A program made the position numbers and the translations under genes. Below are positions 1,023 to 25,287 of a DNA stretch of 64,000 nucleotides, piece by piece. The first letter of the stretch is position 1; each line of letters opens with the position of its first letter. The stretch is taken from contig JAQUOV010000004.1 in the NCBI GenBank assembly GCA_028716965.1, forward strand, positions 140,298 to 204,297, given 5' to 3'. Origin of the DNA: Candidatus Omnitrophota bacterium. GTDB taxonomy: Bacteria; Omnitrophota; Gorgyraeia; Gygaellales; Profunditerraquicolaceae. The notes under the pieces were generated by a model. That model saw only the letters and a list, made by a program, of their open reading frames with translations, had not been told where the DNA came from and did no database searches.

Positions 1023-1071
1023 TCGCAGAATTGACAAGCCGTGGTATTTGGGCTATAGTAGAGGAGTATAA

Positions 1072-3844: not shown

Positions 3845-3887
3845 CCCCCGGGCTCTCCGGGATGAGCCGCAGGCGTTTTTCCCACAG

Positions 3888-4553
3888 GTGATAATCATGG
3901 ATGAAGCAAAATCAAAAACCTTGAGAAATATTGAAGAAAAAATGGAGGCCCTGGACAGCGGTTCTTTACGCTACCACATTTTAGAGAGCGCCAAGAACTT
4001 TAAGCGTTCATGGATAGAGTTGGGCCGGGCCCTTTATTCGGCATGGAAAGACAAGATGTATAAGGAGTGGGGGTATGTAAACTTTGATATCTATGTCAGC
4101 CGCGAGATAGGCATACGTAAACAGACGGCAATGAAGCTGCTCAAGTCGTATTATTTCCTGGAAAAAGAGGAGCCGCAATATTTAAAAAACGATTATGCGC
4201 AAAGCAGCCAGGCTGCCAATATCCCCAGCTATGAGTCAGTGGATATCCTGCGCCAGGCGAAGAATAAGAAGGCATTAGATGCGGATGATTATAATAACCT
4301 GAAAAAAGAGATTTTTGAAAAGGGCAGGGATGCCCAGGAACTGAAGAAAAGCCTGGGCGTAATCATCAGGCAGCGCCAGGAGCTGGATCCGGAGGAAGCG
4401 CAGGAGAAAAGAAGGCTGGCTATGTTAAGGAGGGTTCTGGGTCAGTTGCGTATGTTGAAACAGGAGGCGGAGGTTTTAAAAATGCTTCCTATGCCGTTAA
4501 TTAAAGAGTTGGATGCCTTGATAAAGAAGATTGATGCTGCGCTGGGAGCGTAA
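3888..4553 (+). CDS. Hypothetical cytoplasmic protein
   Basis: 221 aa ORF with coding-like composition. No recognisable motif. Confidence 0.4.
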   Translation: MIIMDEAKSKTLRNIEEKMEALDSGSLRYHILESAKNFKRSWIELGRALYSAWKDKMYKEWGYVNFDIYVSREIGIRKQTAMKLLKSYYFLEKEEPQYLKNDYAQSSQAANIPSYESVDILRQAKNKKALDADDYNNLKKEIFEKGRDAQELKKSLGVIIRQRQELDPEEAQEKRRLAMLRRVLGQLRMLKQEAEVLKMLPMPLIKELDALIKKIDAALGA

Positions 4554-4559
4554 ATTTAT

Positions 4560-4973
4560 ATGGTAAATCTTGCCCGGGATGCTATGACCTTGGAAAAGAA
4601 GATGCTCGCTTTAGGGGTGCGCGATGATGATATTGTGGAAACCTTTATCCATTCAAGCGGGCCGGGGGGGCAGAATGTAAATAAGACTGCTACCTGCGTA
4701 TATCTTAAACATTTGCCTACCGGTCTTGAGGTGAAATGTCAGCGTCAGCGTTCGCAGTTGCTTAACCGCCGGTTAGCCAGGTACATACTTTTAAGCAAGA
4801 TTGAAAATAAGATCAAGCATAATCTTTTGCAGAAGCAGTCGCTTAAGGCAAAGATCAGGCGCCAGATGCGCAGGAAACCCAAAGGTGTAAAATTAAGGAT
4901 CCTTGAGCAAAAACGCCGGCATTCAGAAAAGAAATCTACGCGTAGAAAAATCCGCGAAATTGAGATTGCATAA
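4560..4973 (+). CDS. arfB: Alternative ribosome-rescue factor ArfB (peptidyl-tRNA hydrolase, RF-1 domain)
   Basis: GGQ motif (SSGPGGQNVNKT). Short ~137 aa with a basic C-terminal tail typical of ArfB/YaeJ. Confidence 0.8.
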   Translation: MVNLARDAMTLEKKMLALGVRDDDIVETFIHSSGPGGQNVNKTATCVYLKHLPTGLEVKCQRQRSQLLNRRLARYILLSKIENKIKHNLLQKQSLKAKIRRQMRRKPKGVKLRILEQKRRHSEKKSTRRKIREIEIA

Positions 4974-5024
4974 CTCTTTTCTTGTGGTATTATAATAAAA
5001 AGTAAATATGCAAGGAGGTTTGTT

Positions 5025-5150
5025 ATGGGGTACGGTTATGGTTTTATGAGCGGTTTGATTTCGTTGGCTTTAACTATTTGGCTGGTATATTTCAGCGTTG
5101 CAGTGCTTCAGAAACTGGATAAAATAATCGAGCTGTTAAACAAGAAGTAG
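5025..5150 (+). CDS. 41-aa predicted small membrane protein (micro-ORF; not in the supplied ORF track)
   Basis: ATG at 5025 preceded by AGGAGG at 5013-5018. Encodes MGYGYGFMSGLISLALTIWLVYFSVAVLQKLDKIIELLNKK, with one TM helix. Confidence 0.4.
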   Translation: MGYGYGFMSGLISLALTIWLVYFSVAVLQKLDKIIELLNKK

Positions 5151-5166
5151 CCTTTTATTAAATCCA

Positions 5167-5195
5167 TTGACTTGCAGGTTCAGTTAGCATATAAT
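5167..5195 (+). promoter_or_regulatory. Sigma70-like promoter upstream of rpsO (TTGACT-17-TATAAT)
   Basis: TTGACT at 5167-5172, 17-nt spacer, TATAAT at 5190-5195. Confidence 0.55.
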
Positions 5196-5218
5196 AATCA
5201 GAAAGGGAGGGAAGAAAA

Positions 5219-5488
5219 TTGGTTTTGGTAAAGGAAAAAAAAGCAAAATTGATTAACGAGTTTAAGGTGCATGCCAGGGATACTGGTTCCGCCGAGGTCC
5301 AGATAGCTATCTTGACCGAGAGGATCAATTCCCTGGGTGATCATTTTAAATCGCATAAAAAGGACCTGCATTCTCGCCGCGGCCTGCTTTTATTGGTTGG
5401 CAGACGCCGCAGCCTTCTTAAATATCTCAAGGATAAGGATTTAAAGAAGTACGAAGAGGTTCTGGGAAAACTTCACTTGAGAAAATAA
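5219..5488 (+). CDS. rpsO: 30S ribosomal protein S15
   Basis: TTG start. The sequence aligns along its length with S15 (…[12 protein letters not shown]…). Confidence 0.9.
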
Positions 5489-5531
5489 GGCCCCAAAAAC
5501 ATTTCACCTATAATAAAGAAAGAGCAAAATA

Positions 5532-7613
5532 ATGCAAAATAAAAGCTTGAAGATTAAATTTGGTAAAAATGACCTTATCCTGGAGACCGGCAGGATTGCT
5601 AAGCAGGCAAATGGTTCGGTCACCGTGACTTATGGCGCAACCGTGATTTTGGTTACTGCCTGTATGTCTAAGGATATAAGGGAAGGGCAGGATTTCTTTC
5701 CTTTGACGGTAGAATACCAGGAAAAGACCTATGCCGCAGGCAGGATCCCCGGCGGTTTCTTTAAGCGTGAAGGCAGGCCTTCAGAAAACGAAATCCTTGG
5801 CTCCCGTCTTATTGACCGGCCGATACGCCCGTTATTTCCCGAAGGGTTCTTGAATGAGGTCCAGGTCATGGCGATGGTCCTTTCAAGCGACGGTGAGAAT
5901 GACCCGAATATCCTGGCGTTGATCGGGGCAAGCGCAGCTTTATCCATTTCGGATATTCCTTTTAAAGGCCCTTTGGCAAGCTGCAGGGTAGCCAGGGTGG
6001 ACAACGAATTTATTTTGAATCCTACTTATGCCGAGCTTGAGAACGCGGACCTGGAGGTAGTGGTTGCCGGAAACAGCAATGGCGTAGTGATGCTTGAGTC
6101 AAAAGCCAAAGAGGTCTCCGAGGAGGTATATCTTGAGGCGGTGAAGTTTGGGATGGAGAGCCTTAAGCCTATACTCAGCATGCAGGAAGAGTTCTGCCGC
6201 CTTTATGGCGCAGAAAAGGCAAAGGTTGAACTTAAATTGATTGACCCGGCCTTAATGCAGAAGATTGAATCTCTTGCGCAGGAGAAACTAAATAAGGTAT
6301 ATAAATTAAGCAAGAAGGAAGAACGCGAAGAGGCAGTTGACCTGTTGACAAAAGAATTGGAATCGCAGTTAACTACTGAAGGTTTCCTTGCGGCGGATAT
6401 TTGTGCCGGGCTTCATGAAGTAGAGAAGAAGCAGGTACGCAAGATGATTGCCGATGAGAATATCCGTATTGATGGGCGTTCTTTCAAGGAGATCCGCCCG
6501 ATCAGCTGCGAAGTTTCTGTGCTTCCGCGTACGCACGGTTCAAGCCTTTTTACCCGCGGGCAGACCCAGAGTCTAGCCGTAACTACTTTAGGCACAGGCG
6601 AAGATGAGCAATTGATCGAGGCGCTTGATGGAGAGAGAAAGAAATCTTTTATGCTGCATTACAATTTCCCTTCTTTTAGCGTTGGAGAAACAAGGGCTAT
6701 ACGCGGACCCGGCAGGCGCGAGATAGGCCACGGGGCATTAGCGGAAAAGGCATTGCTTGCGGTAATGCCGCCGAAAGAGAAGTTCCCTTATACTATAAGA
6801 GTGGTTTCCGAGATTTTGGAATCCAACGGCTCAAGCAGTATGGCTTCGGTCTGCGCTGCTACCTTGTCATTAATGGATGCCGGCGTGCCGATTAAAGAAG
6901 CTGTAGGCGGGGTCGCCTTAGGTTTAGTGAAAGAGGGGAGCAAAACGGCAATCCTTACGGATATCGCCGGATTAGAGGACCATTTTGGAGATATGGATTT
7001 TAAGGTCGCCGGGACCCGCCAGGGTGTTACTGCCGTACAGCTGGATCTTAAGATAGACGGGATTAGTTTAGAACTGCTTAAGGATTGCCTTGCGCAGTCC
7101 AAGGAGTCAAGGTTTTTTATCCTGGATAAAATGAGTTCCGCGTTAAACAGCCCAAGAGAGGAACTTTCCAGTTTTGCCCCGCGCATAGATGTTTTAAAGA
7201 TCAATACCGAGAAGATCGGGGAACTGATCGGTCCGGGAGGAAAGACGATTAAGGCAATAATCGCCGCCACCGGCGCCAGTATTGATATAAAAGATGACGG
7301 TACAGTTTTGGTCGGCTCAACCGACGCGGGCAAATCCGATGCCGCCATTAAAATGATCAGAGCAATTACCGATGATGTGGAGGTAGGCCGGGTTTATTTC
7401 GGCAAGGTAAAACGCATTATGCCGTTCGGAGTCTTTGTAGAGATAGCCCCGCGTAAAGAAGGCCTAGTGCATGTTTCCGAGTTATCAAGTACTTTTGTGA
7501 AGAAAGTTGAAGACGTGGTAAAAGTCGGAGATGAATTTAAAGTCAAGGTTATCGGCATAGATGAGCTGGGCCGGATCAATTTAAGTAAAAAGCAGGCCGA
7601 GCAAAGCAGTTAA
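5532..7613 (+). CDS. pnp: Polyribonucleotide nucleotidyltransferase (PNPase)
   Basis: 693 aa with two RNase PH domains, KH and S1 domains. Follows rpsO in the classical rpsO-pnp synteny. Confidence 0.95.
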   Translation: MQNKSLKIKFGKNDLILETGRIAKQANGSVTVTYGATVILVTACMSKDIREGQDFFPLTVEYQEKTYAAGRIPGGFFKREGRPSENEILGSRLIDRPIRPLFPEGFLNEVQVMAMVLSSDGENDPNILALIGASAALSISDIPFKGPLASCRVARVDNEFILNPTYAELENADLEVVVAGNSNGVVMLESKAKEVSEEVYLEAVKFGMESLKPILSMQEEFCRLYGAEKAKVELKLIDPALMQKIESLAQEKLNKVYKLSKKEEREEAVDLLTKELESQLTTEGFLAADICAGLHEVEKKQVRKMIADENIRIDGRSFKEIRPISCEVSVLPRTHGSSLFTRGQTQSLAVTTLGTGEDEQLIEALDGERKKSFMLHYNFPSFSVGETRAIRGPGRREIGHGALAEKALLAVMPPKEKFPYTIRVVSEILESNGSSSMASVCAATLSLMDAGVPIKEAVGGVALGLVKEGSKTAILTDIAGLEDHFGDMDFKVAGTRQGVTAVQLDLKIDGISLELLKDCLAQSKESRFFILDKMSSALNSPREELSSFAPRIDVLKINTEKIGELIGPGGKTIKAIIAATGASIDIKDDGTVLVGSTDAGKSDAAIKMIRAITDDVEVGRVYFGKVKRIMPFGVFVEIAPRKEGLVHVSELSSTFVKKVEDVVKVGDEFKVKVIGIDELGRINLSKKQAEQSS

Positions 7614-7622
7614 TTTTAAGAA

Positions 7623-9812
7623 GTGAAAGAAAGAAGATTAAATGAGGTCAAAGGCGTTATTTTAATAGCGGTTGGGCTGATGGTTTTGGCCAGCCTCCTG
7701 CGCTTTGATCGTGCTGACCTCGTTTTTTTTACCTCGCACCCCAATTTTCCCCCTAAAAATCTGCTGGGAGTTTTCGGCGCCTATTTAGGCGGGTTTCTCG
7801 TATTCCTCTTCGGCAATATCTCAAGTTTTATTATCCCGTTTCTGGTCATTACCCTGGGTGTAAAGTATTTTCGTCAGGATAAGCCTTATCTTAGTATCCC
7901 GCGTATTATGGGGATGTTCGTATTGCTTATCTCCTTGAGTTCGCTTATCGGCATGTTTAATTTAAGCAACGATTTGTTAAGGTTTCATACCGCGGGGTTT
8001 TTGGGCGCGCTTACCTCCAACTTCATAACCGCATATTTCAGCCGTTTAGGCGGTTTTATTATTTTTATTACCTTTATTATCCTTTCCCTGGCCCTGGTTA
8101 CGGAAATCCTCATCTCTTCGCTTTTCTTGAAGACGCTTGAAAGATTAAAATCGTTTTTCTCGGGAATGTTCGATTTATCCAGCAGACAGAAGGCAACCTT
8201 GGTTAAGGTTAAGCAGAGCCTTTTGCATAAGAATAGCCTTTCCTCTAAGAAAGATGAGCAGCAGGCAGCTACTTCAAAACCAAAGATATTCATGCCTGAG
8301 GCCGCCGCCAGGCCGAAGATACAAATTAAATCCCGCCAGCAGGGAGAGGAAATAAAGATCAAGGCCAAGGAATTGAAGATCGGCGATTATCATCTGCCTT
8401 CCGTGGACCTGCTGGATGAAGCCCCTGAACCGGATACCAGGCAGATGAAGGAGGACCTTGAATCCAGCGCCAGGATCCTTGAGGATACATTGACAGATTT
8501 TGGGATCGCGGCCAAGGTCACGGATATTATCCGCGGCCCGGTAATTACGCGCTATGAACTTGAGCCTGCTCCCGGAGTAAAGATCAACCGTATCGAGGCT
8601 TTAAGCGATGATATCGCTTTGGCAATTAAAGCCCAGTCAGTAAGGATTATCGCGCCTATCCCGGGAAAAGGCCGGGTAGGGGTTGAGGTCCCTAATTTGC
8701 ACAGCGCTTTAGTGTGTATTAAAGACCTGCTCGTTTCTGCCGAATACCATAAACAAAAATCGTCTCTTACCCTGGCTTTAGGCAAGGATATTACCGGAAG
8801 GTCTGTCTTTGGCGACCTGGATGATATGCCGCACCTTTTGATTGCCGGCACTACCGGTTCCGGAAAGACTGTATGCGTGAATACCTGTATTTTATCTTTG
8901 CTTTTCAGGGGCTCGCCCAACGACCTGAAGTTTTTGATGATTGACCCGAAAATGGTGGAGCTGATGCCTTTTAACGGACTGCCGCATCTTTTGTGTCCGG
9001 TTGTTACCGACGCCAAGAAAGCGGCGGTTGCGCTTAATTGGGTAGTTGGACAAATGGAGGAGCGTTATCAGCTTTTGGCTAAGATAGGAGTGAGGAATAT
9101 CGAGGCCTATAATGAGAAACAACAAGAGAAGTTGCCTTATATCGTAGTGATAGTAGATGAATTCGCGGATCTGATGACCGTAGCGCGTGACCAGATTGAA
9201 AATGCGATTACCCGCCTGGCGCAGTTGTCGCGGGCGGTAGGCATACACCTGATTTTAGCCACGCAGCGGCCAAGCGTTGATGTAATTACCGGTGTAATTA
9301 AAGCGAACTTACCGGCGCGTATATCTTTTAAGGTCGCTTCTAAAGTTGATTCGCGCACGGTTTTGGATATGAATGGGGCGGAAACCTTATTAGGTAAAGG
9401 CGATATGCTATTCCTGCAACCCGGGAAAGAGGACCTTATCCGTATACAGGGGGCGCTGGTTAAAGACGGGGAGATTGAAAAGGTGGTAGAGTTTATCAAA
9501 GCGCAAGGGGAGCCGGCTTATAATGACCAGATCCTTAAGGAACAGCAAAAAAATAACTTGGCCGGAGGCGGGGAAAAAGATGAGCTTTATGACGAGGCGG
9601 TGCGCGTAATAATGGAAAGCAACCAGGCGTCGGTTTCCATATTGCAAAGGCGTATGCGTTTAGGCTATACGCGCGCTGCGCGTATTATAGATATAATGGA
9701 GATGGAAGGTTTGGTTGGCCCGTATGAGGGGAGTAAACCGCGCAGGATCCTGGTTGACCGCGAGGCGTGGCTTAAGGATTTGACAGGTCTTAAGGGGACA
9801 GAGAAAATATGA
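7623..9812 (+). CDS. ftsK: DNA translocase FtsK/SpoIIIE
   Basis: Several N-terminal TM helices, a linker, a Walker A motif (GTTGSGKT) and a C-terminal gamma domain. Confidence 0.9.
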   Translation: MKERRLNEVKGVILIAVGLMVLASLLRFDRADLVFFTSHPNFPPKNLLGVFGAYLGGFLVFLFGNISSFIIPFLVITLGVKYFRQDKPYLSIPRIMGMFVLLISLSSLIGMFNLSNDLLRFHTAGFLGALTSNFITAYFSRLGGFIIFITFIILSLALVTEILISSLFLKTLERLKSFFSGMFDLSSRQKATLVKVKQSLLHKNSLSSKKDEQQAATSKPKIFMPEAAARPKIQIKSRQQGEEIKIKAKELKIGDYHLPSVDLLDEAPEPDTRQMKEDLESSARILEDTLTDFGIAAKVTDIIRGPVITRYELEPAPGVKINRIEALSDDIALAIKAQSVRIIAPIPGKGRVGVEVPNLHSALVCIKDLLVSAEYHKQKSSLTLALGKDITGRSVFGDLDDMPHLLIAGTTGSGKTVCVNTCILSLLFRGSPNDLKFLMIDPKMVELMPFNGLPHLLCPVVTDAKKAAVALNWVVGQMEERYQLLAKIGVRNIEAYNEKQQEKLPYIVVIVDEFADLMTVARDQIENAITRLAQLSRAVGIHLILATQRPSVDVITGVIKANLPARISFKVASKVDSRTVLDMNGAETLLGKGDMLFLQPGKEDLIRIQGALVKDGEIEKVVEFIKAQGEPAYNDQILKEQQKNNLAGGGEKDELYDEAVRVIMESNQASVSILQRRMRLGYTRAARIIDIMEMEGLVGPYEGSKPRRILVDREAWLKDLTGLKGTEKI

Positions 9813-10642
9813 ACATTGAAACAGCCGGCACGCGGTTAAAGAAAATACGCCAGGAAAGAGGCTTAAGCCTGGAAGAGGTCCAGAAAAAGACCAAGATCCA
9901 TATTAATGTCTTGCGCGCCATTGAAGGCGACAGTATCTCTAATCTAAACCCGATTTATCTTAAGGGTTTCATTAAGATTTATTGTAACTACCTGGGCCTT
10001 GACCTTAAGGAGTACTTAGGTCAGGCCAGCCAGCCGCATAAACCGGTTTTGAATGCTGCCGTCGGCAGGGATATAGGTGAGCGTATTGAGAAAAAACCCG
10101 CCCTGGTAAAAGAGGTTTCAGTCAAGCTCAGCGCGTTCAGGCCTTCGCCGGGGCTTAAGAAAATAATCATATTTGCGTTAATCGGGATAGTTTTTATATT
10201 CTTAGTTGTCAAACTGACCAGGTTAATTTCCTCCTGGCATAAGAACGTATCACAAAAGGCCAGAGCCTCATCTGCTGTCAGGACCTCCAAGGTTAAGCGC
10301 GAACTCTTACCCAAAGAAGCGATAAATAAGTCTTCAGCAAAAAATATCCCCAAGCAGGACAAGGCGCAGAAGAATTTGTCCCAGGGTTTTATGCTCGGTG
10401 TCTTTGCCCGCGATAAATCCTGGGTTTCCGCCAAGGTGGACGGGAAACTTGTTTTTCACGGCATGCTTGAACGCGGCAGGTCTGAAACCTGGCAGGCCAA
10501 AGATAAAATCGAACTGTCCATCGGCGATGCCGGGGCCGTAGAATTGCAGGTTAATGACCAGCGTTTTACCAAGCTTGGGCGGCGCGGCCAGTCTTTAAAG
10601 AATATTGTCATTAATAGAGACGGCCTGAAGATAGCCCGATGA
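9809..10642 (+). CDS. rodZ: RodZ-like cytoskeleton protein (HTH-XRE, TM, C-terminal DUF4115)
   Basis: N-terminal HTH (LKKIRQERGLSLEEV), a single TM helix, and a C-terminal beta domain typical of RodZ. Confidence 0.65.
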   Translation: MNIETAGTRLKKIRQERGLSLEEVQKKTKIHINVLRAIEGDSISNLNPIYLKGFIKIYCNYLGLDLKEYLGQASQPHKPVLNAAVGRDIGERIEKKPALVKEVSVKLSAFRPSPGLKKIIIFALIGIVFIFLVVKLTRLISSWHKNVSQKARASSAVRTSKVKRELLPKEAINKSSAKNIPKQDKAQKNLSQGFMLGVFARDKSWVSAKVDGKLVFHGMLERGRSETWQAKDKIELSIGDAGAVELQVNDQRFTKLGRRGQSLKNIVINRDGLKIAR

Positions 10643-11886
10643 GGCATAAGCTGGGGATATTAACTTTAGGCTGTCCGAGAAACCTGGTGGATGCCGAAGC
10701 ACTGCTTGCCCGGCTTAAATCCAAAGGTTATTCCATAGTTGATGATATGGCCGAGGCCGAAACGGCCCTGGTAAATACCTGCGCTTTTATCGAAGAGGCA
10801 AAGCGCGAATCGGTTGACGCCATCCTGGATTTAATAGAGCTTAAAAAGAAGGGTAAGCTCAAGAAGATAATTGTTCATGGCTGCCTCTCCCAGCGTTACA
10901 GGGATTTAAGCAAAGAGCTTCCGGAGGTAGATGCCTTTGTAGGCTCGCTCGGGCTTAACCACGAATCAGGAAGGTTTGCTTTAACTCCTAAACACTACGC
11001 TTATTTAAAAATATGCGAAGGCTGCGTAAATAATTGCAGCTATTGTATTATTCCCAAGATTAAGGGTAAGCTAAAAAGCCTGGATGAGGGATCAATAATC
11101 CGGAGGGTAAAACGTTTTAACCGGGAGGGGATCTCCGAGCTTAATATTATCGGACAGGATATTACCGGCTTTGGCATGGATTCCTTGCCTAAAAGCCGCC
11201 TGGCCGGGCTGATAAGTAAAATTATCCGTAATGCGCCTGATATCGGATGGATCCGTCTTTTATATCTGAACCCTGAGCGCATATCCGATGAATTACTGGG
11301 GTTAATCAGGTCCCAGGAGCAGGTATGCAAGTATATTGATTTACCCGTGCAGCATATTAGTAACCGTATACTAAAACTAATGAACCGCCGGGTCACTAAA
11401 AAAGAGATAATCTCCCTGATTCATAAGATAAGGAAGGTTATCCCCGGAGTATCTTTGCGTACTTCGCTCATCGTAGGCTTTCCGTCAGAGTCGGATAAGG
11501 AGTTCAAGGAATTACTGAACTTTGTCAGAGAGGCAAGGTTTGAAAGATTGGGAGCTTTTATTTATTCCCGGGAAGAAGGTACTGCCGCTTATAGTTTTAA
11601 GGGGCAAATCAGCAAAGAAATCAAGCAACAAAGGTTTAACGCTGTTATGGCGGCACAGCAGATGGTATCTGCCGGTGTAAATGCCGGGTTTTTGGGCAAA
11701 AACATGCGCGTACTTATAGAGGAAAAACAGGATGGTGCTTATATCGGGCGCAGCCAGGCAGACGCCCCCGAGGTAGACGGCTTGGTTTATGTAAATTCCA
11801 AGCGCTTGCTTAAAATCGGGAAATTCACTGAGGTTAAAATAACCGACACCCTGGAGTATGACTTAGTGGGGGAGGCTGTAAATTGA
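10639..11886 (+). CDS. rimO: Ribosomal protein S12 methylthiotransferase RimO
   Basis: MTTase N-domain, radical SAM CxxxCxxC motif (CEGCVNNCSYC) and a C-terminal TRAM domain. Confidence 0.85.
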   Translation: MRHKLGILTLGCPRNLVDAEALLARLKSKGYSIVDDMAEAETALVNTCAFIEEAKRESVDAILDLIELKKKGKLKKIIVHGCLSQRYRDLSKELPEVDAFVGSLGLNHESGRFALTPKHYAYLKICEGCVNNCSYCIIPKIKGKLKSLDEGSIIRRVKRFNREGISELNIIGQDITGFGMDSLPKSRLAGLISKIIRNAPDIGWIRLLYLNPERISDELLGLIRSQEQVCKYIDLPVQHISNRILKLMNRRVTKKEIISLIHKIRKVIPGVSLRTSLIVGFPSESDKEFKELLNFVREARFERLGAFIYSREEGTAAYSFKGQISKEIKQQRFNAVMAAQQMVSAGVNAGFLGKNMRVLIEEKQDGAYIGRSQADAPEVDGLVYVNSKRLLKIGKFTEVKITDTLEYDLVGEAVN

Positions 11887-11937
11887 GAGCCTGCGCAGCA
11901 GCAAGCAAATTAAAATATTAAATACGAAAGAAGGTGT

Positions 11938-12519
11938 ATGATGAATCTTGCCAACCGTTTGACCATGTCACGGATTTTGTTAACCTTTGTGTTCATGTTC
12001 TTTTTGTTCTGCCAGGGGCTTTGGCCCAAGGTAGCCAGCTTGATCGTTTTTATCCTTGCTGCATTGTCTGATTTATTTGACGGTATGATTGCCCAGCGCA
12101 GGAACATGGTCACGGATTTTGGAAGACTTATGGACCCTATCGCCGATAAGATACTGGTGCTGGCGGCTTTTGCGGCGTTTGTGCAGCTGCAGCTGATTGA
12201 TGCCTGGATGTTCGTGATCATTATTGCCCGGGAGATCATGATCACTTCTTTGCGCCTTTTTGCCTTGAATAAAGGCAAGGTGCTTTCAGCGGCGCGGGCC
12301 GGAAAACATAAGACGGTTTTACAGATGGCCGTGATATTTACTATCCTTGGTTTTATTTTGCTTAAAGAAATAGTGCTCAGGTATTCCACCTGGAACCCTG
12401 CCTGGGAGAAGATTTTCCGCCAGGGGATATTCTGCCTTATGCTGCTTACGGTCGGTCTTACCCTTTATTCCGGGTTGTCATATCTTTGGGAGAACCGCAA
12501 GATAATTACCCGTCTATGA
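11938..12519 (+). CDS. pgsA: CDP-diacylglycerol--glycerol-3-phosphate 3-phosphatidyltransferase
   Basis: CDP-alcohol phosphatidyltransferase motif (DG...AR...G...DPIADK). Four TM helices. Confidence 0.85.
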   Translation: MMNLANRLTMSRILLTFVFMFFLFCQGLWPKVASLIVFILAALSDLFDGMIAQRRNMVTDFGRLMDPIADKILVLAAFAAFVQLQLIDAWMFVIIIAREIMITSLRLFALNKGKVLSAARAGKHKTVLQMAVIFTILGFILLKEIVLRYSTWNPAWEKIFRQGIFCLMLLTVGLTLYSGLSYLWENRKIITRL

Positions 12520-12980
12520 AGCTTGCCGCATTGTCTAATCTGCTGGTTAAGACAATCAGCACATTCTTTTTCGTCGGTTATCTGCCTTTGATCCCGGGGA
12601 CATTCGGCAGTATCGCGGGCATAGGCATATTTTACCTGTTTAACGGCAGAAGTTGGGCAGGTTATCTTTTATTGATCTTTTGCATAATGATCTTAGGGTT
12701 ATTAACCAGCGGCAGGGCGGAAAAGCTGCTGAACAGGAAGGATCCGGGTTGTATCGTGATTGATGAAGTAATGGGCATGCTTGTTGCCCTTAGTTTCCTG
12801 CCTCATGATCCAAAAATAATTATCCTGGCTTTCTTTATTTTCAGGATCCTTGATACGCTTAAGCCTTTTCCCGCTGGCAGGCTGCAGAATATGCACGGGG
12901 CAGTAGGGGTAATGGGCGATGACCTGGTTGCTGGCATCTATGCCAATATCGTGTTGCAGTTGATCTTAAGGTTAAGTTAA
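12486..12980 (+). CDS. pgpA: Phosphatidylglycerophosphatase A
   Basis: PGTFGS motif and membrane topology typical of PgpA. Follows pgsA. Confidence 0.8.
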   Translation: MGEPQDNYPSMKLAALSNLLVKTISTFFFVGYLPLIPGTFGSIAGIGIFYLFNGRSWAGYLLLIFCIMILGLLTSGRAEKLLNRKDPGCIVIDEVMGMLVALSFLPHDPKIIILAFFIFRILDTLKPFPAGRLQNMHGAVGVMGDDLVAGIYANIVLQLILRLS

Positions 12981-13541
12981 GAGGATAAATTTCTCCAGGA
13001 GCGCATAAGTTGGACCCTTTGGCTCAAGGGTGCTTTCAAACAGAGCAATCTTTCCGCAGGCAAACTCCCAATTTGCGCCGGCAATTTCGTTTTCTATCTT
13101 ATTAAGAACTTTTCCTAAATCAGCAGGGGCAATATGCTCTTTTACGCGGCCGATGGTAATGTGCGCGCGGAAAGGCCGTTGTTCCTGGGGTATACCTGTT
13201 TGGACCAGCCTTGTCTCCAGCTGAAGCGCAAGCTGCTTTAACCCTAAAGGCAGCTGGTCGCTCCCCATCCAGATTATCCTTGCCGCATGCATATTAGGGA
13301 AGACGCCCGCGCTGTTTATTTTAATCTTAAAAGCGGGAGATATTTTTGTTATTTCAGTAATTATTTCTTTAATCCCGTTTAACTGTTCAAAAGTGATATC
13401 CCCCAGGAATTTCAGGGTAAGGTGCAGGTTTTGCGGCTTGACCCATCTGATTTCAGGCGTTCCAGTTTTTAACCTCTCCTGGATCACTGAAAGACTATCT
13501 TGAATTTCCTCCGGGAGCTCTATGGCGATAAATGTGCGCAT
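12972..13541 (-). CDS. thpR: RNA 2',3'-cyclic phosphodiesterase (2'-5' RNA ligase family, LigT/ThpR)
   Basis: Two H-x-T-x motifs (HLTLKFLG and HITIGR). Confidence 0.8.
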   Translation of the reverse strand: MRTFIAIELPEEIQDSLSVIQERLKTGTPEIRWVKPQNLHLTLKFLGDITFEQLNGIKEIITEITKISPAFKIKINSAGVFPNMHAARIIWMGSDQLPLGLKQLALQLETRLVQTGIPQEQRPFRAHITIGRVKEHIAPADLGKVLNKIENEIAGANWEFACGKIALFESTLEPKGPTYALLEKFILLT

Positions 13542-13996
13542 AATAAACGCAATGCCTCTGCAATAGTTTTATTTCGGATGCCGTGCCGGCTTCCCCGGAA
13601 AGTAAATCTCCGGCAAATATTCTTATCTTTTTCGGACAGCGATATAAAGACAGTGCCTACCGGTTTATTTACGCTTGAACCGCCTGGCCCGGCAAGACCG
13701 GTTATACCGATGCCTAAATCTGCCTTTGATTTCTTGCGGATGCCTTCTGCCATTGATATTGCCACCTGGCGGGAAATCGCACCATATTTAGAGATAAGCT
13801 TTGCGGGGACCTGCAGGATTTTTTCTTTAGAGCTATTACTGTAAGCAACTATGCCCAGGAGGAAATAGGCCGAGGCGCCCGGCTTCTGGGTTAATTTAGC
13901 ACAAAGCAGCCCTCCGCTGCAGGATTCGGCAATGGCGATAGTTTTTTTCTGGTGGAGTAGCTGGTTATGGATTTCAGATATTATTTTATCAGGCAT
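13520..13996 (-). CDS. pncC: CinA C-terminal domain protein / NMN amidohydrolase PncC
   Basis: IAIAESCSGGLL motif of the CinA_C domain. Confidence 0.8.
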   Translation of the reverse strand: MPDKIISEIHNQLLHQKKTIAIAESCSGGLLCAKLTQKPGASAYFLLGIVAYSNSSKEKILQVPAKLISKYGAISRQVAISMAEGIRKKSKADLGIGITGLAGPGGSSVNKPVGTVFISLSEKDKNICRRFTFRGSRHGIRNKTIAEALRLLCAHLSP

Positions 13997-16670: not shown

Positions 16671-17486
16671 ATGAAATACGCTGATTTGCATGTGCATACT
16701 TCTGAGAGCGACGGAACATTTACGCCTGAACAACTGGTTAAACAGGCGCTTGAGCGCGGGCTTTCAGCGATTGCCGTAGTTGACCATGATACGGTAGGGG
16801 CGATCCCCGGGGCCTTGAAAGCCGCGCAGGGGACGGATTTAGAGCTTATCCCGGGTATTGAGTTAACCGCGCAATACGGGAACCAGGAGATCCATATACT
16901 CGGATATTTTATAGATTTTCAGGATAAAGTATTGCTTGATAAATTAAAATTAGTACAGCTTAACCGTATTGAGCGTATCCATAAAATTGTAAGTAATCTG
17001 GAGGGGCAGGGGGTAAACCTTAATACGCAAACTGTTTTTGATATCTCCGGCAAAGGCAGCGTAGGCAGGATGCATATTGCCCGGGCGCTGGTTAAGGAGG
17101 GATGGGTTGCTACGCCCGCTGAAGCATTCAGAAAATACATCGGGGATAAATCTCCGGCCTATGTAGCGGGTTTTAGCCTTTCTCCGGCTGAGGCAATCAG
17201 CCTGATTAAGGGCTCAGGCGGAGTAGCTGTCCTGGCGCATCCGTATTTGCTGCATAATGACGAATTGATCCCTGAGTTTGCCGGTTATGGATTGCAAGGC
17301 ATAGAGGTTTATTATCCCGAGCATTCACAGTCTATGGTTAATTTTTATCTGGGCTTGGCGAAGAAACTGAATCTTTTGGTTACCGGCGGTTCGGATTTTC
17401 ACGGCAGCGTAAAACCCGAAATAAAATTAGGGACAATTAAAATACCTATTGAGCTGGTGGAGAAGCTGCGCCAGGGCATAAGATGA
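16671..17486 (+). CDS. PHP-domain metal-dependent phosphoesterase (TrpH/YciV-like)
   Basis: N-terminal HVHTSESDG PHP motif. The stop overlaps the ribD start (ATGA). Confidence 0.75.
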   Translation: MKYADLHVHTSESDGTFTPEQLVKQALERGLSAIAVVDHDTVGAIPGALKAAQGTDLELIPGIELTAQYGNQEIHILGYFIDFQDKVLLDKLKLVQLNRIERIHKIVSNLEGQGVNLNTQTVFDISGKGSVGRMHIARALVKEGWVATPAEAFRKYIGDKSPAYVAGFSLSPAEAISLIKGSGGVAVLAHPYLLHNDELIPEFAGYGLQGIEVYYPEHSQSMVNFYLGLAKKLNLLVTGGSDFHGSVKPEIKLGTIKIPIELVEKLRQGIR

Positions 17487-19546: not shown

Positions 19547-19840
19547 ATGAAAAAGCAGTTGCATATTTATTATTCGGGCAGGGTCCAGGGAATAGGCTTT
19601 CGTTATACCATACGGGAGATCGCGAATTCTTTGAAGGTCTGCGGCTGGGTTAAGAATTTAGACGACGGCCGCGTAGAGGTATTGGCGGAAGCCGAAGAAG
19701 GGGCCTTGGATAATTTTCTTGAACAGGTAAATCAGCACTTTTCCCGTTATATCAGAGAAGCCAGCACAGATTGGCAGATGGACAGCCTGTCTGCCGGCAG
19801 GAAAGACGGTCAATTCCGCGATTTTCAAGTTACATTCTAA
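19547..19840 (+). CDS. acyP: Acylphosphatase
   Basis: VQGIGFRYT and GWVKNLDDGRVEV signature motifs. 97 aa. Confidence 0.85.
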   Translation: MKKQLHIYYSGRVQGIGFRYTIREIANSLKVCGWVKNLDDGRVEVLAEAEEGALDNFLEQVNQHFSRYIREASTDWQMDSLSAGRKDGQFRDFQVTF

Positions 19841-19846
19841 TCTTTA

Positions 19847-21856
19847 TTGGACAACCACATGCCCGCCCAAATCAGGAAAAAGATCGAGTCGTTAAAAGAA
19901 AAACTGAGAAGATACGATTATTCCTATTATGTTTTAAGCCAGCCCCAGGTTTCCGATAAAGAATATGACGATTTAATGCTTAAACTAAAGTCGCTTGAAG
20001 AGCAATATCCGCAGTTACGCACCGATGATTCTCCCAGCCAGCGCTTGAGTTCGGCAATAAGCCCGGGTTTTAAGACGGTTAAGCATAAAACCGGAATGTT
20101 CTCATTGGATAATACCTATTCTATTGATGAATTAGCCGGTTGGGATGAACGTGTGCGCAAAGGATTAGGAAGCGCTGCCGCTTATGAATATGTTGTTGAG
20201 CTTAAAATAGACGGAGTAAGCGCCAATTTGACTTATCTAAAGGGCAAGCTTACGGTAGGCTCAACGCGCGGTGACGGCCAGACAGGCGAAGACGTAACCG
20301 CGAATATAAAAACAATCCGCGCTATCCCTTTGCTTTTATTGGGAAAGGATATCCCGGATTTTATTGAGATCCGCGGCGAAGTGTATATGGATAAGAAAGA
20401 TTTTTCGCAGGTTAACAAAGAACGTATTGATAATGGCGATGTTTTGTTCGCTAACCCGCGTAATGCTACCAGTGGTTCGCTGAAGTTGCTGGACAGCAGC
20501 ATTGTCGCTAAAAGGCACCTTAATTTCTTCGCGCATTCCTTGGGCGCCTGCAGCAACCATACCATAAATACGCAATGGGAATTTCTGACCAGGCTTAAAG
20601 GTTGGGGAGTGCGTTCAAATATGCATTCCGAACTTTGCCGCAATATAGATGAAGTAATCGCTTACTGTAACAGGTGGCAGCAGAAACGCGATGAGTTAAG
20701 TTATGAAATCGACGGGGTAGTGATTAAGTTGAATAGCCTGAGCCAACAGAAGGAGCTGGGGTTTACCGCCAAAAGCCCGCGCTGGGCAGTGGCATATAAA
20801 TTTGCCGCCCGGCAGGCAACTACCGAAGTAACAGCCATTAAAGTCAACGTCGGCCGCACGGGGGTAATTACCCCGACAGCGGAACTTAGGCCTGTGGAGT
20901 GTTCAGGGGTAATTATAAGTAATGCCACTTTGCATAATTTTGATGAAATAAACAGGCTGGGGTTGCGTGAAGGAGACCGTGTGCTCATCGAGCGGGCCGG
21001 AGATGTGATACCGAAAGTAGTAAAAGTGATGGAACAAAGAGGCAGGAAAGCTTACGCTATTCCTGGAAAGTGCCCTGCCTGCGGGGAAAAGATCGTTAAA
21101 GAAAAAGAGGAGGATGTGGCTTACCGTTGCATAAACTCTGATTGCCCGGCGCAGCTTGAACGGGCGCTTTTGCACTTTGCCAGCCGCGATGCCATGGATA
21201 TTGAGGGTATGGGCGAAGCAGTGATTGCCCAACTGGTAAGTTTAAAAATACTTAAAAGCCTGGCGGATATTTATAATAAGCTGAACATGGAAAACTTATT
21301 GAGGCTTGAATTGTTTAAAGAAAAAAAGGCCGGCAACTTGTTGAATTCCATTGAAAAGAGTAAAGAGCGGCCTTTAGCGCGCCTGATTTTTGCTTTGGGT
21401 ATAAGACACGTAGGCCAGAAAGCCGCAAATACCTTGGCCGAAGAGTTTGGAGATATACAGAGGCTTATGCAGGCAAGGGCGGAAGACCTTGACAAGATAC
21501 CGGAGATAGGCCAGGTTATGGCAGGCTCTATTTCAACCTATTTTAATCTCAACCGGAACAGGAGTTTAATCCAGGAGTTAAGAGATTCCGGAGTTAATAT
21601 GCATCAGGCTCCTGCCAGCTTTAAAGCCAACAGGCTTACAGGTAAGACAGTGGTTTTTACCGGAGAATTGTACGGGTTCTCGCGCAGCCAGGCAGAGGAG
21701 CTGGTACGCCGGTCTAAAGGCAAGCCGACCTCCAATATAAGCAGCAAGACCGATATTCTGATAGCTGGGCTAAACGCAGGAACAAAATTAAAAAAGGCCA
21801 GGGAACTGGGAGTAAGGGTTATTGGCGAAGATGAATTTAAGGAGATGGTTAAATGA
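19847..21856 (+). CDS. ligA: NAD-dependent DNA ligase
   Basis: KIDG adenylation motif, OB fold, four-Cys zinc finger, HhH repeats and a BRCT domain. Confidence 0.95.
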   Translation: MDNHMPAQIRKKIESLKEKLRRYDYSYYVLSQPQVSDKEYDDLMLKLKSLEEQYPQLRTDDSPSQRLSSAISPGFKTVKHKTGMFSLDNTYSIDELAGWDERVRKGLGSAAAYEYVVELKIDGVSANLTYLKGKLTVGSTRGDGQTGEDVTANIKTIRAIPLLLLGKDIPDFIEIRGEVYMDKKDFSQVNKERIDNGDVLFANPRNATSGSLKLLDSSIVAKRHLNFFAHSLGACSNHTINTQWEFLTRLKGWGVRSNMHSELCRNIDEVIAYCNRWQQKRDELSYEIDGVVIKLNSLSQQKELGFTAKSPRWAVAYKFAARQATTEVTAIKVNVGRTGVITPTAELRPVECSGVIISNATLHNFDEINRLGLREGDRVLIERAGDVIPKVVKVMEQRGRKAYAIPGKCPACGEKIVKEKEEDVAYRCINSDCPAQLERALLHFASRDAMDIEGMGEAVIAQLVSLKILKSLADIYNKLNMENLLRLELFKEKKAGNLLNSIEKSKERPLARLIFALGIRHVGQKAANTLAEEFGDIQRLMQARAEDLDKIPEIGQVMAGSISTYFNLNRNRSLIQELRDSGVNMHQAPASFKANRLTGKTVVFTGELYGFSRSQAEELVRRSKGKPTSNISSKTDILIAGLNAGTKLKKARELGVRVIGEDEFKEMVK

Positions 21857-22347
21857 GATTAAAGAAGATAGTTTTGCTTTTACTATTTTGTGTTTTGCTG
21901 CTGGATATGGCAGGGTGCGAATCTTTTACCCGTAAATTCACCCGTAAATCCAAGAAGAATGACCAGGCGGTTGAAATGGTCCTTGCCCCCGAGGAATATA
22001 AAGGGCCGAATATGACTAAAGAAGAGCTTTACCGGCAGTATTTTCTGTTCTGGAAATCGTGGCAGGGTGAATTGAAGAATGCGTTTACCCAGAAGTTAAG
22101 CCTTAAAAAGAAGGAAGATTGCGCTCAGGAGGCGTTGAAGAACCTGGTGAATATGAAGAATATGCTGGTACCGGAGATGCAAAAGAGCATTGACGTGTAT
22201 ATTAATAAGACCATTGACCTTTTGGATTCTATAAGAAATGATGTTTACGGCATCAATGACAGCCGTAACCTTAATATTGCCGAAGGTATTGAGTCGGATA
22301 TCCATAAAGGTTTTGTTTACCCAAGAATAAAGAATTATTTAAAATGA
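21853..22347 (+). CDS. Hypothetical lipoprotein
   Basis: Signal peptide with a lipobox (LDMAGC). 164 aa, no recognised domain. The start overlaps the ligA stop by 4 nt. Confidence 0.45.
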   Translation: MRLKKIVLLLLFCVLLLDMAGCESFTRKFTRKSKKNDQAVEMVLAPEEYKGPNMTKEELYRQYFLFWKSWQGELKNAFTQKLSLKKKEDCAQEALKNLVNMKNMLVPEMQKSIDVYINKTIDLLDSIRNDVYGINDSRNLNIAEGIESDIHKGFVYPRIKNYLK

Positions 22348-22964
22348 TATTAGAAACAGTTAATGTCGGGGCAATGCAGGTTAATTGTTATATACTTGCC
22401 TGCGCAGAGGGAAGGAAGGCTGTAATTATTGATCCCGGCGACCAGGTGCATAAGATAAAGGCCGTTTTGGCCAGGCATAAGCTAAGCCCCGCGATGGTGA
22501 TTAATACCCATGGCCATTATGACCATATCGGAGGGGATGATGAATTTGGGGTTTGCGTGCATGTGCATAAGCAGGATTTGACAATGCTTGAAAACGCAGC
22601 CCGGAATCTTTCTGCCAGCTTTGCTCTGCCCTATAAAGTCAAATCCGAGATCAAGGTTTTAGGGGACAAAGAAACCATTGTAGTGGATTGCCTGGAATTA
22701 GAGATCCTGCACCTGCCCGGGCATACAGCAGGAGGCATTGGGATCTTAATGAAAAAGCCGCAGACGGGTATTGTCTTTACCGGGGATACATTATTTTTCC
22801 AGGGGGTTGGACGCTGCGATTTACCCGGGGGAAGCGAATACCTGCTTAATAAATCAATAAAGGAAAGATTGTTTACTTTGCCTGATGACACAAAGGTTTA
22901 TCCCGGTCACGGCCCGGAAACTACTATAGGCATAGAAAAGGCAAATAACCCATTTATAAGATAG
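22344..22964 (+). CDS. MBL-fold metallo-hydrolase (glyoxalase II-like)
   Basis: THGHYDHIGG metal-binding motif. Confidence 0.8.
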   Translation: MILETVNVGAMQVNCYILACAEGRKAVIIDPGDQVHKIKAVLARHKLSPAMVINTHGHYDHIGGDDEFGVCVHVHKQDLTMLENAARNLSASFALPYKVKSEIKVLGDKETIVVDCLELEILHLPGHTAGGIGILMKKPQTGIVFTGDTLFFQGVGRCDLPGGSEYLLNKSIKERLFTLPDDTKVYPGHGPETTIGIEKANNPFIR

Positions 22965-23031
22965 AATGAATCAGGCGCCTGGTAATGAAAACCATGCGCT
23001 TTAATGAATTCAATAAGGAAGAGGGTGCGGG

Positions 23032-23919
23032 GTGAAAGAACTTATTGGCTCATTTTTAGATTATCTTTCGGTTGAACGCGGCCTGGCCAAGAATACCACC
23101 ATTGCTTACCGCCAGGACCTGAATATTTACCTGGATTTTATGAGCAAGCGCAATATAAGCGCTCTTTCCAGGATTTCCAAGAATGATATTATTGAGTTCA
23201 TGCTTTCTGAAAAGGGAAAGGGTGTTTCTCCGACCAGTATCTCCCGTCGGCTGGCAGCCGTACGCATGTTCCATCGTTTTCTGGCCAGGGAAAGGGTTTT
23301 GAAGGATGACCCTACGGCCTTGATCGATTCTCCGAAATTATGGAAGAAGGTCCCGGATACTCTTTCCTTGAATGAAGTAGAGACGTTGATCAGCCAGCCT
23401 GACGTGCGGCTGCGCCAGGGGGCAAGGGATAAGGCTATCCTGGAGACTCTTTACGCTACGGGTATGCGTGTTTCCGAGTCCACCAATCTTAAGATTAATA
23501 ACGTTAATCTGGATATCGGTTTTTTGCGTTGTATCGGCAAAGGCAACAAAGAACGGGTTATCCCTTTGGGGAAGAAGGCAATCAATACTATCAAAAAGTA
23601 CCTGGAGTTTAGCCGGCCGCATTTCCTGAAGAATAAAGTATCGGAGTTTCTTTTTATAAACCGTTCCGGCAACAAGCTGTCCCGGCAGTCGGTTTGGAAA
23701 TTAATCAAGCAGTATGCCAAAGAAGCCAAGATCAAGAAACCGATAAAGGTACATACCTTAAGGCATTCGTTTGCCACGCATTTATTGGAAAGAGGGGCGG
23801 ACCTGCGTTCGGTACAGGAGATGCTCGGCCATTCTAACATCTCTACCACCCAGATCTATACGCATATAGACAGAGACAGGCTTAAGAAGATACATAAGAT
23901 GTTCCATCCCAGGCCATAA
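23032..23919 (+). CDS. xerD: Tyrosine recombinase XerC/XerD family
   Basis: C-terminal catalytic motifs R...HTLRHSFATHLLERGADLRSVQEMLGHSNISTTQIYTH. Confidence 0.8.
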   Translation: MKELIGSFLDYLSVERGLAKNTTIAYRQDLNIYLDFMSKRNISALSRISKNDIIEFMLSEKGKGVSPTSISRRLAAVRMFHRFLARERVLKDDPTALIDSPKLWKKVPDTLSLNEVETLISQPDVRLRQGARDKAILETLYATGMRVSESTNLKINNVNLDIGFLRCIGKGNKERVIPLGKKAINTIKKYLEFSRPHFLKNKVSEFLFINRSGNKLSRQSVWKLIKQYAKEAKIKKPIKVHTLRHSFATHLLERGADLRSVQEMLGHSNISTTQIYTHIDRDRLKKIHKMFHPRP

Positions 23920-23928
23920 AGGCAGCGG

Positions 23929-25287
23929 ATGATATATAACAGGCAGAAGGTAAAGGTTATGTATAATATGAAAGAATACTTAAAGAAAATTCCGCACGCA
24001 ATAAAGCGCCTGTTTGTTTTGGTAAAAGAGGTTTCTAGGGAAACTAAGATGCCGGCATATCTGGTCGGTGGTTTTCCGCGCGACCTTATCTTGGGAGCTA
24101 TGGACTGGGATCTGGATATAACCGTTGAAGGAGACGGTGTTAAATTCGCCGAGGTCCTGGCCGGCAAATTAGGCGCAGCTTTAATAAAACATGAAAGGTT
24201 CAGGACCGCCACAGTCATCCTTGACCATCGGGTAAAGGTGGATATTGCTACTACCCGTAAAGAAATTTACCCCTTCAGCGCTTCATTGCCGCTGGTCAGC
24301 CCCGGCTCTCTACGGGAAGACCTCTTCCGCCGTGATTTTACTATCAATGCCATGGCGTTTGGCCTTTCCGAAAGTATGGATTGGGAACTTATTGATATCT
24401 TTGGCGGAAAAGATGACCTGGCAGCAGGTAAGATCCGCGTGCTGCATGACCTAAGTTTTAAGGACGACCCTACGCGCATCTTAAGGGCTGTCCGTTTTAA
24501 GCAGCGCTATAACTTTAAGATTGAACCCAAAACGCTCTGCCTTTTAAAAGAGGCCGTAAATTCAGGTTTACTGGAAAAGGTCAATCCTCATAGAACGCGC
24601 GATGAGCTGATATTAATGCTCAAAGAGAGAAATCCTTCGGCGCAACTTAAACAGCTTAGCGCTTTGGGCGCTCTGTCTTTCATCAGCGATAAGCTAAGGC
24701 CCGGCAAACTAACTTATGATTTGTTTAAGTCCGTGCATAAAGAGATTATCTGGTTTATGCAAAATTTTCCCTTCCATAGGCAGTTTGAGGCATGGCTTAT
24801 TTATTTTGCTGCGCTCTTGAGGCCGCTGGCTTTGCCCGAGATTAAAAAGGTTGCGCGCAGGCTGGGCTTATCTAAAAAGGAAGAGCAGAAGATTGTCAGT
24901 TGCCGTAAAATTAATCAAAGGCTTATCCGGCGTTTGAAAAACAGACATATTACACCGGCAGAGATCTTTGGCTTACTCAAACCTTTAAGTTATGAAACAG
25001 TCATCCTGCTGCGCTCTGTTTCGCATGATAACGCCTTCAGGAAGCATATCGCGGATTTCCTCAAGATTTATAACGGAGTACGCCTTTGCATATCCGGGGA
25101 TGATTTATTCCGGCTGGGTGTTTTGCCGGGTCCAAGATATCAAAAGATATTAAATAAGGTATTGGCGGCCAGGCTTAACGGCAAAGTAAAAAGCCGCCAG
25201 GAAGAGCTTGCTTTGATCGGAAGGATATTAATGCATAAGAACGGAGAAGAAAAATGTCCAGACATGAGCGCGTTGAAGAAGCGATAA
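23929..25287 (+). CDS. cca: tRNA nucleotidyltransferase (CCA-adding enzyme) / poly(A) polymerase head-domain family
   Basis: GGxxRD...DxD nucleotidyltransferase motif (GGFPRDLILG...DLDITV). Confidence 0.75.
   Translation: MIYNRQKVKVMYNMKEYLKKIPHAIKRLFVLVKEVSRETKMPAYLVGGFPRDLILGAMDWDLDITVEGDGVKFAEVLAGKLGAALIKHERFRTATVILDHRVKVDIATTRKEIYPFSASLPLVSPGSLREDLFRRDFTINAMAFGLSESMDWELIDIFGGKDDLAAGKIRVLHDLSFKDDPTRILRAVRFKQRYNFKIEPKTLCLLKEAVNSGLLEKVNPHRTRDELILMLKERNPSAQLKQLSALGALSFISDKLRPGKLTYDLFKSVHKEIIWFMQNFPFHRQFEAWLIYFAALLRPLALPEIKKVARRLGLSKKEEQKIVSCRKINQRLIRRLKNRHITPAEIFGLLKPLSYETVILLRSVSHDNAFRKHIADFLKIYNGVRLCISGDDLFRLGVLPGPRYQKILNKVLAARLNGKVKSRQEELALIGRILMHKNGEEKCPDMSALKKR

Follow-up and report, generated by a model that had tools for sequence, protein, structure and literature searches.

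The subject of this analysis is a gene of the PHP superfamily in a riboflavin (rib) operon of a Candidatus Omnitrophota bacterium, within a 64,000-nucleotide stretch of DNA (metagenome-assembled genome, GenBank assembly GCA_028716965.1, contig JAQUOV010000004.1, positions 140,298 to 204,297 of the forward strand), hereafter called the window. An original prediction, made from the DNA letters, had put this gene forward as the missing phosphatase of riboflavin synthesis, the enzyme that dephosphorylates 5-amino-6-(5-phosphoribitylamino)uracil (ARPP, or ARAPDP). We found that its product is orthologous to the COG0613 PHP phosphoesterases, a widespread group that includes RNase AM (YciV/TrpH) and Cv1693; the enzyme family is known, and the operon arrangement is specific to the lineage. 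The protein probably works as a 3′,5′-nucleotide bisphosphate (pAp) phosphatase and/or as a 5′-3′ oligoribonuclease of the RNase AM type, and its gene would belong to an old block, nusB-PHP(-ftsY), with rib genes interspersed. The history of the locus accounts for the position of the gene better than riboflavin chemistry does.

The location of the gene was as first described. Pfam and NCBIfam searches bore out the order ribBA-ribH-nusB-PHP-ribD-ribE (Table 1), and the stop codon of PHP (TGA, 17484-17486) overlaps the start codon of ribD (ATG, 17483-17485) in an ATGA at 17483-17486, as had been claimed. We then collected orthologues with a PHP-seeded scan based on a 12-sequence alignment, keeping one genome per GTDB species, which yielded 80 loci at 40-83% identity. 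Neighbours were identified by tblastn with the rib, nusB and adjoining proteins of the window, and by clustering open reading frames and annotating the recurrent clusters with Pfam. At loci of the Omnitrophota type, nusB-PHP-ribD was kept in the window and in all 31 species-level loci, down to 41% PHP identity, and most of them kept the whole order from ribBA to ribE. The PHP stop lay within approximately 0-40 nt of the ribD start across these loci, and the nusB stop overlapped the PHP start in several relatives.

A different picture emerged in sister phyla. In Verrucomicrobiota, PHP-ftsY was present in 12/12 loci with nusB directly upstream in 11 of them; six of the 12 loci continued into ribD-ribE and six were without ribD. 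Three Verrucomicrobiota loci (L052, L055, and L066) had nusB-PHP-ftsY with both flanks free of rib genes for at least 4 kb (4-7 kb). Two loci of Planctomycetota (L019 and L027) had ribH-nusB-PHP-ftsY without ribD or ribE, and Candidatus Auribacter (L047:4767-10434) had ribBA-ribH-nusB-PHP-ftsY-ribD-ribE. Not one locus of the scan had PHP beside rib genes without nusB. Judged from comparative gene order, the persistent unit is therefore nusB-PHP(-ftsY) and not PHP-ribD. We found no description of a nusB-PHP-ftsY block across PVC-related phyla in the literature that we searched. Verrucomicrobiota loci with this block, followed or not by ribD-ribE, include L062, L067, L070, L075, L079, L042, and L131.

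A further 33 loci, from Bacillota, Chloroflexota, Nitrospirota, Desulfobacterota-like bacteria, FCB-group phyla, and Aerophobetes, had no nusB or rib gene within their flanks. Eight of them (seven of the Clostridia type and one from Anaerolineales) had the genes for RNase Y and SpoVS upstream of PHP, with YmdB between the two in 7/8 and RecA further upstream in several. The neighbourhoods with nusB and with RNase Y/YmdB hint at a role in RNA 5′-end processing or turnover; together, the nusB-PHP-ftsY block and the separate rny-ymdB-spoVS-PHP neighbourhood point to an RNA-processing role for a large non-proteobacterial branch of RNase AM. The Clostridia-type loci, with recA-rny-ymdB-spoVS followed by PHP, are L030, L050, L053, L071, L074, L077, and L082 (at about 1000-7800), and the Anaerolineales locus, L072, has rny-spoVS followed by PHP. 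An M19 dipeptidase gene sometimes intervenes at these loci, and an aminotransferase gene and cobU/cobQ-like genes follow PHP.

We also ran a reciprocal scan of metagenome contigs seeded on RibD. All five informative loci with a RibD at least 49% identical to that of the window had PHP directly upstream of ribD. Approximately 65 more distant loci had the canonical order ribD-ribE-ribBA-ribH, followed by nusB in about nine, and none of them had the PHP gene. One RibD-seeded locus, L131, was of the Verrucomicrobiota type. The expectation that the gene would be conserved in the rib clusters of relatives thus held within Omnitrophota, for the 31 loci and the window as well as for the 5/5 RibD-seeded loci, and failed in several Verrucomicrobiota, in Planctomycetota with respect to ribD and ribE, and in the 33 loci of other phyla. 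At one Omnitrophota locus (L022:2738-5636), nusB-PHP-ribD-ribE was found with ribBA and ribH absent from the 2.7 kb upstream, which shows that nusB-PHP-ribDE can occur apart from the 5′ half of the cluster.

Profile and structure comparisons placed the protein among nucleotide and RNA phosphoesterases. Its N-terminal motifs H7-x-H9, D14, and H39 are those of the PHP superfamily, and the Pfam PHP model PF02811 matched at 45.4 bits (cut-off, 26.4), the match being confined to the N-terminal part of the PHP domain. The top NCBIfam matches were NF041577 (3′,5′-nucleoside bisphosphate phosphatase), at 185.3 bits against an equivalog cut-off of 400, and NF047791 (RNase RNM), at 166 bits against 375. 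By these scores, the protein belongs in the broader COG0613 family and is not to be equated exactly in function with either characterised enzyme. The only relatives of known structure found by sequence were BAD_1165 (3e0f/3o0f), 9etk, Cv1693 (2yb1), and 7ug9, each at about 118 bits, and with a 48-sequence family profile the matches to 9etk, 3e0f, 7ug9, and 2yb1 rose to 208-220 bits. The AlphaFold2 model made from the 48-sequence alignment had a mean pLDDT of 96.7. Foldseek superposed it on 9etk and 3e0f with TM scores of 0.90 and on 2yb1 with 0.87, over 267-274 alignment columns; the superposition spans the entire protein and takes in the helical insertion domain that accompanies the PHP barrel in the solved members.

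The active-site residues could be compared with those of E. coli RNase AM, in which H13, D20, H45, E72, H83, H198, D255, and H257 bind three Mn ions, R107, R110, and R141 form a buried pocket for the 5′-phosphate of the first nucleotide, and F161 stacks on its base (PMC9410882). The equivalent of F161, F154 in Cv1693, has been called strictly conserved across RNase AM (PMC11528712). In the window protein the metal ligands are H7, H9, D14, H39, E64, H75, H190, D242, and H244, where H9, the equivalent of E. coli H15, is counted as a ligand by homology, no ligand role being listed for H15 itself (PMC9410882). The 5′-phosphate pocket (R99, R102, and R133) and the stacking phenylalanine (F153) are all kept. 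The ligands, the arginine triad, and F153 are invariant in the 80 species-level relatives, which cover four context groups, and in three PDB sequences; by context, this means 32/32 ribD-adjacent sequences, the window included, and 48 others. They are likewise invariant in the 48-sequence alignment, which is made of representatives of 50%-identity clusters.

We also asked how the rib-linked proteins differ from the others. A neighbor-joining (NJ) tree of the 80 proteins and three PDB sequences grouped them by phylum, with clades for Verrucomicrobiota, Bacillota, Chloroflexota, Nitrospirota, Desulfobacterota-like bacteria, the FCB group, and Omnitrophota with Planctomycetota nested in it, and no long branch led to the rib-linked sequences. 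This topology fits what vertical inheritance of a single housekeeping orthologue would produce. A column-by-column comparison of the context groups showed unchanged catalytic and specificity residues. Only two differences were specific to the Omnitrophota clade: position 134 has leucine or methionine where other phyla have proline, and positions 166-167 have lost the P-[RK] pair that Verrucomicrobiota, Bacillota, Nitrospirota, and others keep; all these positions vary among characterised enzymes too. A specialised rib-linked subfamily was considered and rejected in view of the phylum-following rough tree and the unchanged specificity residues. Several metagenome-assembled genomes titled 'uncultured Planctomycetia/Planctomycetales' (L006, L017, L020, L025, L026, L032, and L054) carry an Omnitrophota-type locus, and their PHP proteins nest in Omnitrophota clades, except that of L054, which branches with the Verrucomicrobiota clade; the depositors' labels are probably imprecise.

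From the conserved residues and the solved homologues, the following mechanism can be proposed. A trinuclear metal centre on a distorted (β/α)7 PHP barrel would attack the 3′ phosphoester of a nucleotide, while the 5′-phosphate of that nucleotide would be clamped by three arginines at the interface of the PHP and insertion domains and its base would stack on a phenylalanine. Such a geometry would allow dephosphorylation of pAp and/or stepwise 5′-to-3′ hydrolysis of 5′-phosphorylated short RNA, and the latter activity would cover oligo- and diribonuclease functions and possibly the trimming of rRNA 5′ ends. The placement of the gene can be accounted for by comparative gene order. An ancestral cluster might have been Auribacter-like, with three non-riboflavin genes (nusB, PHP, and ftsY) interleaved with rib genes; Omnitrophota would then have lost ftsY from the site, which would have left PHP abutting ribD and nusB and PHP co-transcribed behind a flavin mononucleotide (FMN) riboswitch. 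As an alternative to a riboflavin role, the original prediction had also considered a TrpH/YciV-type pAp phosphatase or RNase AM found in the operon by chance. The family part of that alternative agrees with the fold and the residues, and the chance part does not stand, since the placement reflects an old linkage to nusB.

The comparison with known systems is in keeping with this assignment, with some differences. RNase AM (E. coli 7UG9 and Vibrio cholerae 9ETK) acts as a 5′-3′ exo- and oligoribonuclease in the maturation of rRNA 5′ ends and also as a diribonuclease and a deFADding enzyme. The window protein resembles it in domain organisation, in length (approximately 270-290 residues), and in having all metal ligands, the 5′-phosphate pocket, and the stacking phenylalanine (PMC9410882, PMC11528712), while the two differ in that their identity is 27-32%, the RNase RNM score is low, and E. 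coli R201 is replaced by L193. Cv1693 of Chromobacterium violaceum (2YB1) is a pAp phosphatase of the amidohydrolase/PHP superfamily, as relayed by PMC9410882, PMC11528712, and PMC8268124. The model corresponding to Cv1693 was the best NCBIfam match, and all residues of the binding mode in the AMP plus Pi product complex, as set out in PMC9410882 and PMC11528712, are kept; as for differences, the window protein is 31% identical to Cv1693 and scores under the equivalog cut-off. BAD_1165 of Bifidobacterium adolescentis was the best PDB match by sequence (118.5 bits, 33% identity); it is a structural-genomics PHP phosphoesterase without an assigned function and adds no functional information. The genomic contexts differ as well, as the window gene follows nusB in a rib operon, unlike that of E. 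coli RNase AM, which adjoins the trp operon.

Several observations weigh against a nucleotide or RNA phosphoesterase placed by history. The six-gene order and the tight coupling to ribD persist across deep divergence of Omnitrophota while the flanking genes change (LigT-CinA, GroES-GroEL, and others), and an FMN riboswitch precedes the cluster in 10/10 relatives; persistent order, coupling, and riboswitch would be expected of a pathway gene as well. The pairing of ribH with nusB is widespread and has, to our knowledge, no functional link, so adjacency to nusB is weak functional evidence. On the protein side, both equivalog cut-offs were widely missed, and the characterised enzymes are only 31-33% identical (27% for the truncated PHP domain of 7ug9). 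The arginine of the HPGR motif, which contacts the scissile phosphate in E. coli (R201), is a leucine in the window protein (H190-P-Y-L193), and 0/80 relatives carry arginine in this column, as is also the case for 3e0f; this arginine may be specific to the proteobacterial enzymes. Finally, the tree is a rough distance tree without support values.

The foremost alternative is the one first proposed, that the PHP protein is an ARPP phosphatase in Omnitrophota, either dedicated to this step or a nucleotide phosphoesterase that performs it in addition. The trinuclear metal centre would then bind and hydrolyse the 5′-phosphate of the ribityl chain, and the resulting compound would pass to lumazine synthase, whose gene lies two positions upstream. 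Reviews from 2025-2026 still describe ARPP dephosphorylation as having no universal dedicated enzyme, and any phosphatase encoded within a rib operon is worth checking in view of this gap. The known ARPP phosphatases are the HAD enzymes YigB/YbjI of E. coli and YcsE/YwtE/YitU of B. subtilis, those of B. thetaiotaomicron and Arabidopsis, and, from Aquifex, a histidine-family phosphatase (9MMH) and an IMPase (9MMI); they are promiscuous, and for most of them specificity needs to be shown by assay (PMC13151069, PMC12051542). As three unrelated folds (HAD, histidine phosphatase, and IMPase) already serve the step, a further one is plausible. PHP-fold histidinol-phosphate phosphatases are an example of this fold at work as a biosynthetic monoesterase. 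All that the PHP protein would have in common with the known ARPP phosphatases is the hydrolysis of a phosphomonoester on a riboflavin intermediate: HAD enzymes use an aspartate nucleophile and histidine phosphatases a histidine nucleophile, unlike the trinuclear metal centre of PHP, and the folds are unrelated. A PHP-family ARPP phosphatase is mentioned neither in PMC13151069 nor in PMC12051542, and full-text searches of the literature, that of 2025-2026 included, brought up none; a 2026 review describes no established bacterial ARPP phosphatase within a rib operon, explicitly so for B. subtilis.

The case for ARPP as the substrate is made by location: the window and 31/31 Omnitrophota-type loci have the gene within the rib cluster, close to the ribD start, and it lies directly upstream of ribD in 5/5 informative RibD-seeded loci and behind the riboswitch in 10/10 relatives. 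However, co-location and riboswitch control apply equally to nusB, which is not a riboflavin gene, and ftsY of Auribacter, another such gene, shares operon membership and coupling, though no FMN riboswitch was found there at the gathering score. The positive evidence for this activity is thus co-location, a property that is shared by nusB and, in Auribacter, by ftsY. In addition, orthologues persist as nusB-PHP-ftsY without rib genes and, in the 33 loci of other phyla, without any such linkage, and some 65 canonical rib operons do without the PHP gene. The residues also argue against this substrate. The arginine triad and the stacking phenylalanine hold a second (5′) phosphate away from the metal centre and are invariant in 32/32 rib-adjacent sequences; as ARPP carries a single phosphate, selection for ARPP as the substrate should have let them drift, and their retention favours a nucleotide or RNA phosphoesterase. 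No clade-specific remodelling of the catalytic site was seen either, the differences at 134 and 166-167 being at positions that are also variable in characterised enzymes. We therefore regard an ARPP phosphatase as unlikely: conservation in the rib clusters of Omnitrophota speaks for the initial proposal, and the rib-free orthologues and invariant nucleotide-binding residues speak against it. ARPP activity would be noteworthy if true, and its recruitment here, to which we give the same small chance, would add a further unrelated enzyme family for the step and the first to be encoded in an FMN-riboswitch rib operon. Operon membership alone is misleading in this case, the same operon holding nusB and a sister lineage adding ftsY.

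Another explanation links flavins to RNA. The protein might strip RNA of flavin adenine dinucleotide (FAD) caps (deFADding) or have FAD-related dinucleotides as substrates, with the FMN riboswitch tuning its expression to the flavin supply. The E. coli enzyme RNase AM can degrade FAD-capped RNA in vitro, and it influences FAD-cap levels in the cell (PMC9410882), and the orthologue in the window is transcribed behind an FMN riboswitch. The idea is speculative, however, and the authors of that study see deFADding as a general property of 5′-3′ exoribonucleases (PMC9410882). Moreover, high FMN would lower expression through the riboswitch, the opposite of the apparent need for an FAD-cap remover, and in sister phyla, where nusB-PHP-ftsY is kept, no FMN riboswitch reached the gathering score. 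We consider such a role very improbable; if true, the protein would link flavin supply to RNA 5′-end or FAD-cap metabolism. Least probable of all is another chemistry of COG0613, i.e. hydrolysis of 5-phosphoribosyl 1,2-cyclic phosphate of the PhnPP type or of histidinol phosphate: weak matches to the cyclic phosphate dihydrolase model NF041661 (95.5 bits) and to the histidinol-phosphatase-domain model NF004981 (32 bits) were far under the cut-offs of 500 and 117, for which reason both assignments were rejected, the RNase AM and pAp phosphatase models scored about twice as high or more, and no phn or his genes were found in the 80 neighbourhoods by the clustering of recurrent neighbours, in which only recurrent clusters were annotated.

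An FMN riboswitch had been claimed at the head of the operon. The whole-window Rfam search at the gathering threshold (66.2 bits) did not report one, and a permissive search gave a full-length match to RF00050 at 54.2 bits. In 10/10 Omnitrophota relatives an FMN riboswitch was found upstream of ribBA at the same position and above the gathering score (69-110 bits); with homologues at the same place in all ten, the element in the window is to be taken as a weak-scoring homologue and not as a chance match. It is very probably a real, divergent FMN riboswitch, so that the claim holds by homology even though the window copy misses the gathering score. The P1 stem of its aptamer has mismatched pairs, and it may be that this copy is decaying or unusually divergent. 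A terminator-like hairpin between the aptamer and the ribBA start is the probable expression platform. The promoter candidate upstream is a consensus match only, the total of such sites in the region not exceeding shuffle expectation. No FMN riboswitch was found at the gathering score in the Verrucomicrobiota, Planctomycetota, and Auribacter loci. A conserved internal promoter was looked for between ribH and nusB; the spacer there is not conserved and ranges from approximately 20 nt, the shortest, to 150 nt, and thus gives no evidence that nusB-PHP is transcribed separately.

Table 1. Features of the riboflavin operon and its surroundings (positions in the window)
Feature	Start	End	Strand	Details
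Sigma-70-like promoter candidate (TTGACA-16-TGnTAAAAT), upstream of the FMN element	14026	14053	+	11/12 hexamer matches
FMN riboswitch aptamer RF00050, weak-scoring copy	14081	14211	+	54.2 bits, E 1.5e-11, model positions 1-138
Terminator-like hairpin and T-run, between aptamer and ribBA start	14280	14306	+	8-bp stem GCCCAAAG...CTTTGGGT, then TTTTTTATT
ribBA (DHBP synthase / GTP cyclohydrolase II)	14342	15550	+	PF00926, PF00925; NF006803 610 bits, cut-off 569
ribH (lumazine synthase)	15611	16078	+	PF00885; TIGR00114 182.7 bits, cut-off 84.6
nusB (transcription antitermination factor)	16195	16611	+	PF01029; TIGR01951 151.8 bits, cut-off 88.35
PHP-domain phosphoesterase, TrpH/YciV (RNase AM)/Cv1693 family	16671	17486	+	ATG start, 271 aa
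ribD (deaminase/reductase), start overlapping the PHP stop	17483	18580	+	TIGR00326 352.6 bits, cut-off 156.35
ribE (riboflavin synthase)	18581	19156	+	PF00677 x2; NF006767 211.9 bits, cut-off 155
tRNA-Pro(CGG), 3′ boundary of the cluster	19318	19393	+	conserved after ribE in relatives

The PHP reading frame is preceded by a Shine-Dalgarno-like motif (GGAAGG) 8 nt before its ATG, and the encoded protein begins with MKYADLHVHTSESDG, within which the motif HVHTSESDG is found. An identical 271-residue protein is already recorded as "PHP domain-containing protein".

Downstream of ribE, the tRNA-Pro(CGG) gene is followed by an acylphosphatase gene (19547-19840) and by ligA (19847-21856), a trio that is kept in most Omnitrophota loci. 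Further on (21853-25287) are genes for a conserved 164-residue protein without a Pfam match, an MBL-fold hydrolase, a XerC/D-like recombinase, and an enzyme of the CCA-adding/poly(A) polymerase family. On the other side, genes for a LigT-like 2′-5′ RNA ligase/phosphoesterase and a CinA-domain (nicotinamide-nucleotide amidase-like) protein lie on the minus strand (12972-13996), divergent from the rib operon, and this arrangement is kept in the Omnitrophota subclade of the window. The region further upstream of the operon (5532-12980) holds housekeeping genes for PNPase, FtsK, RodZ, a RimO/MiaB-like radical-SAM enzyme, PgsA, and PgpA.

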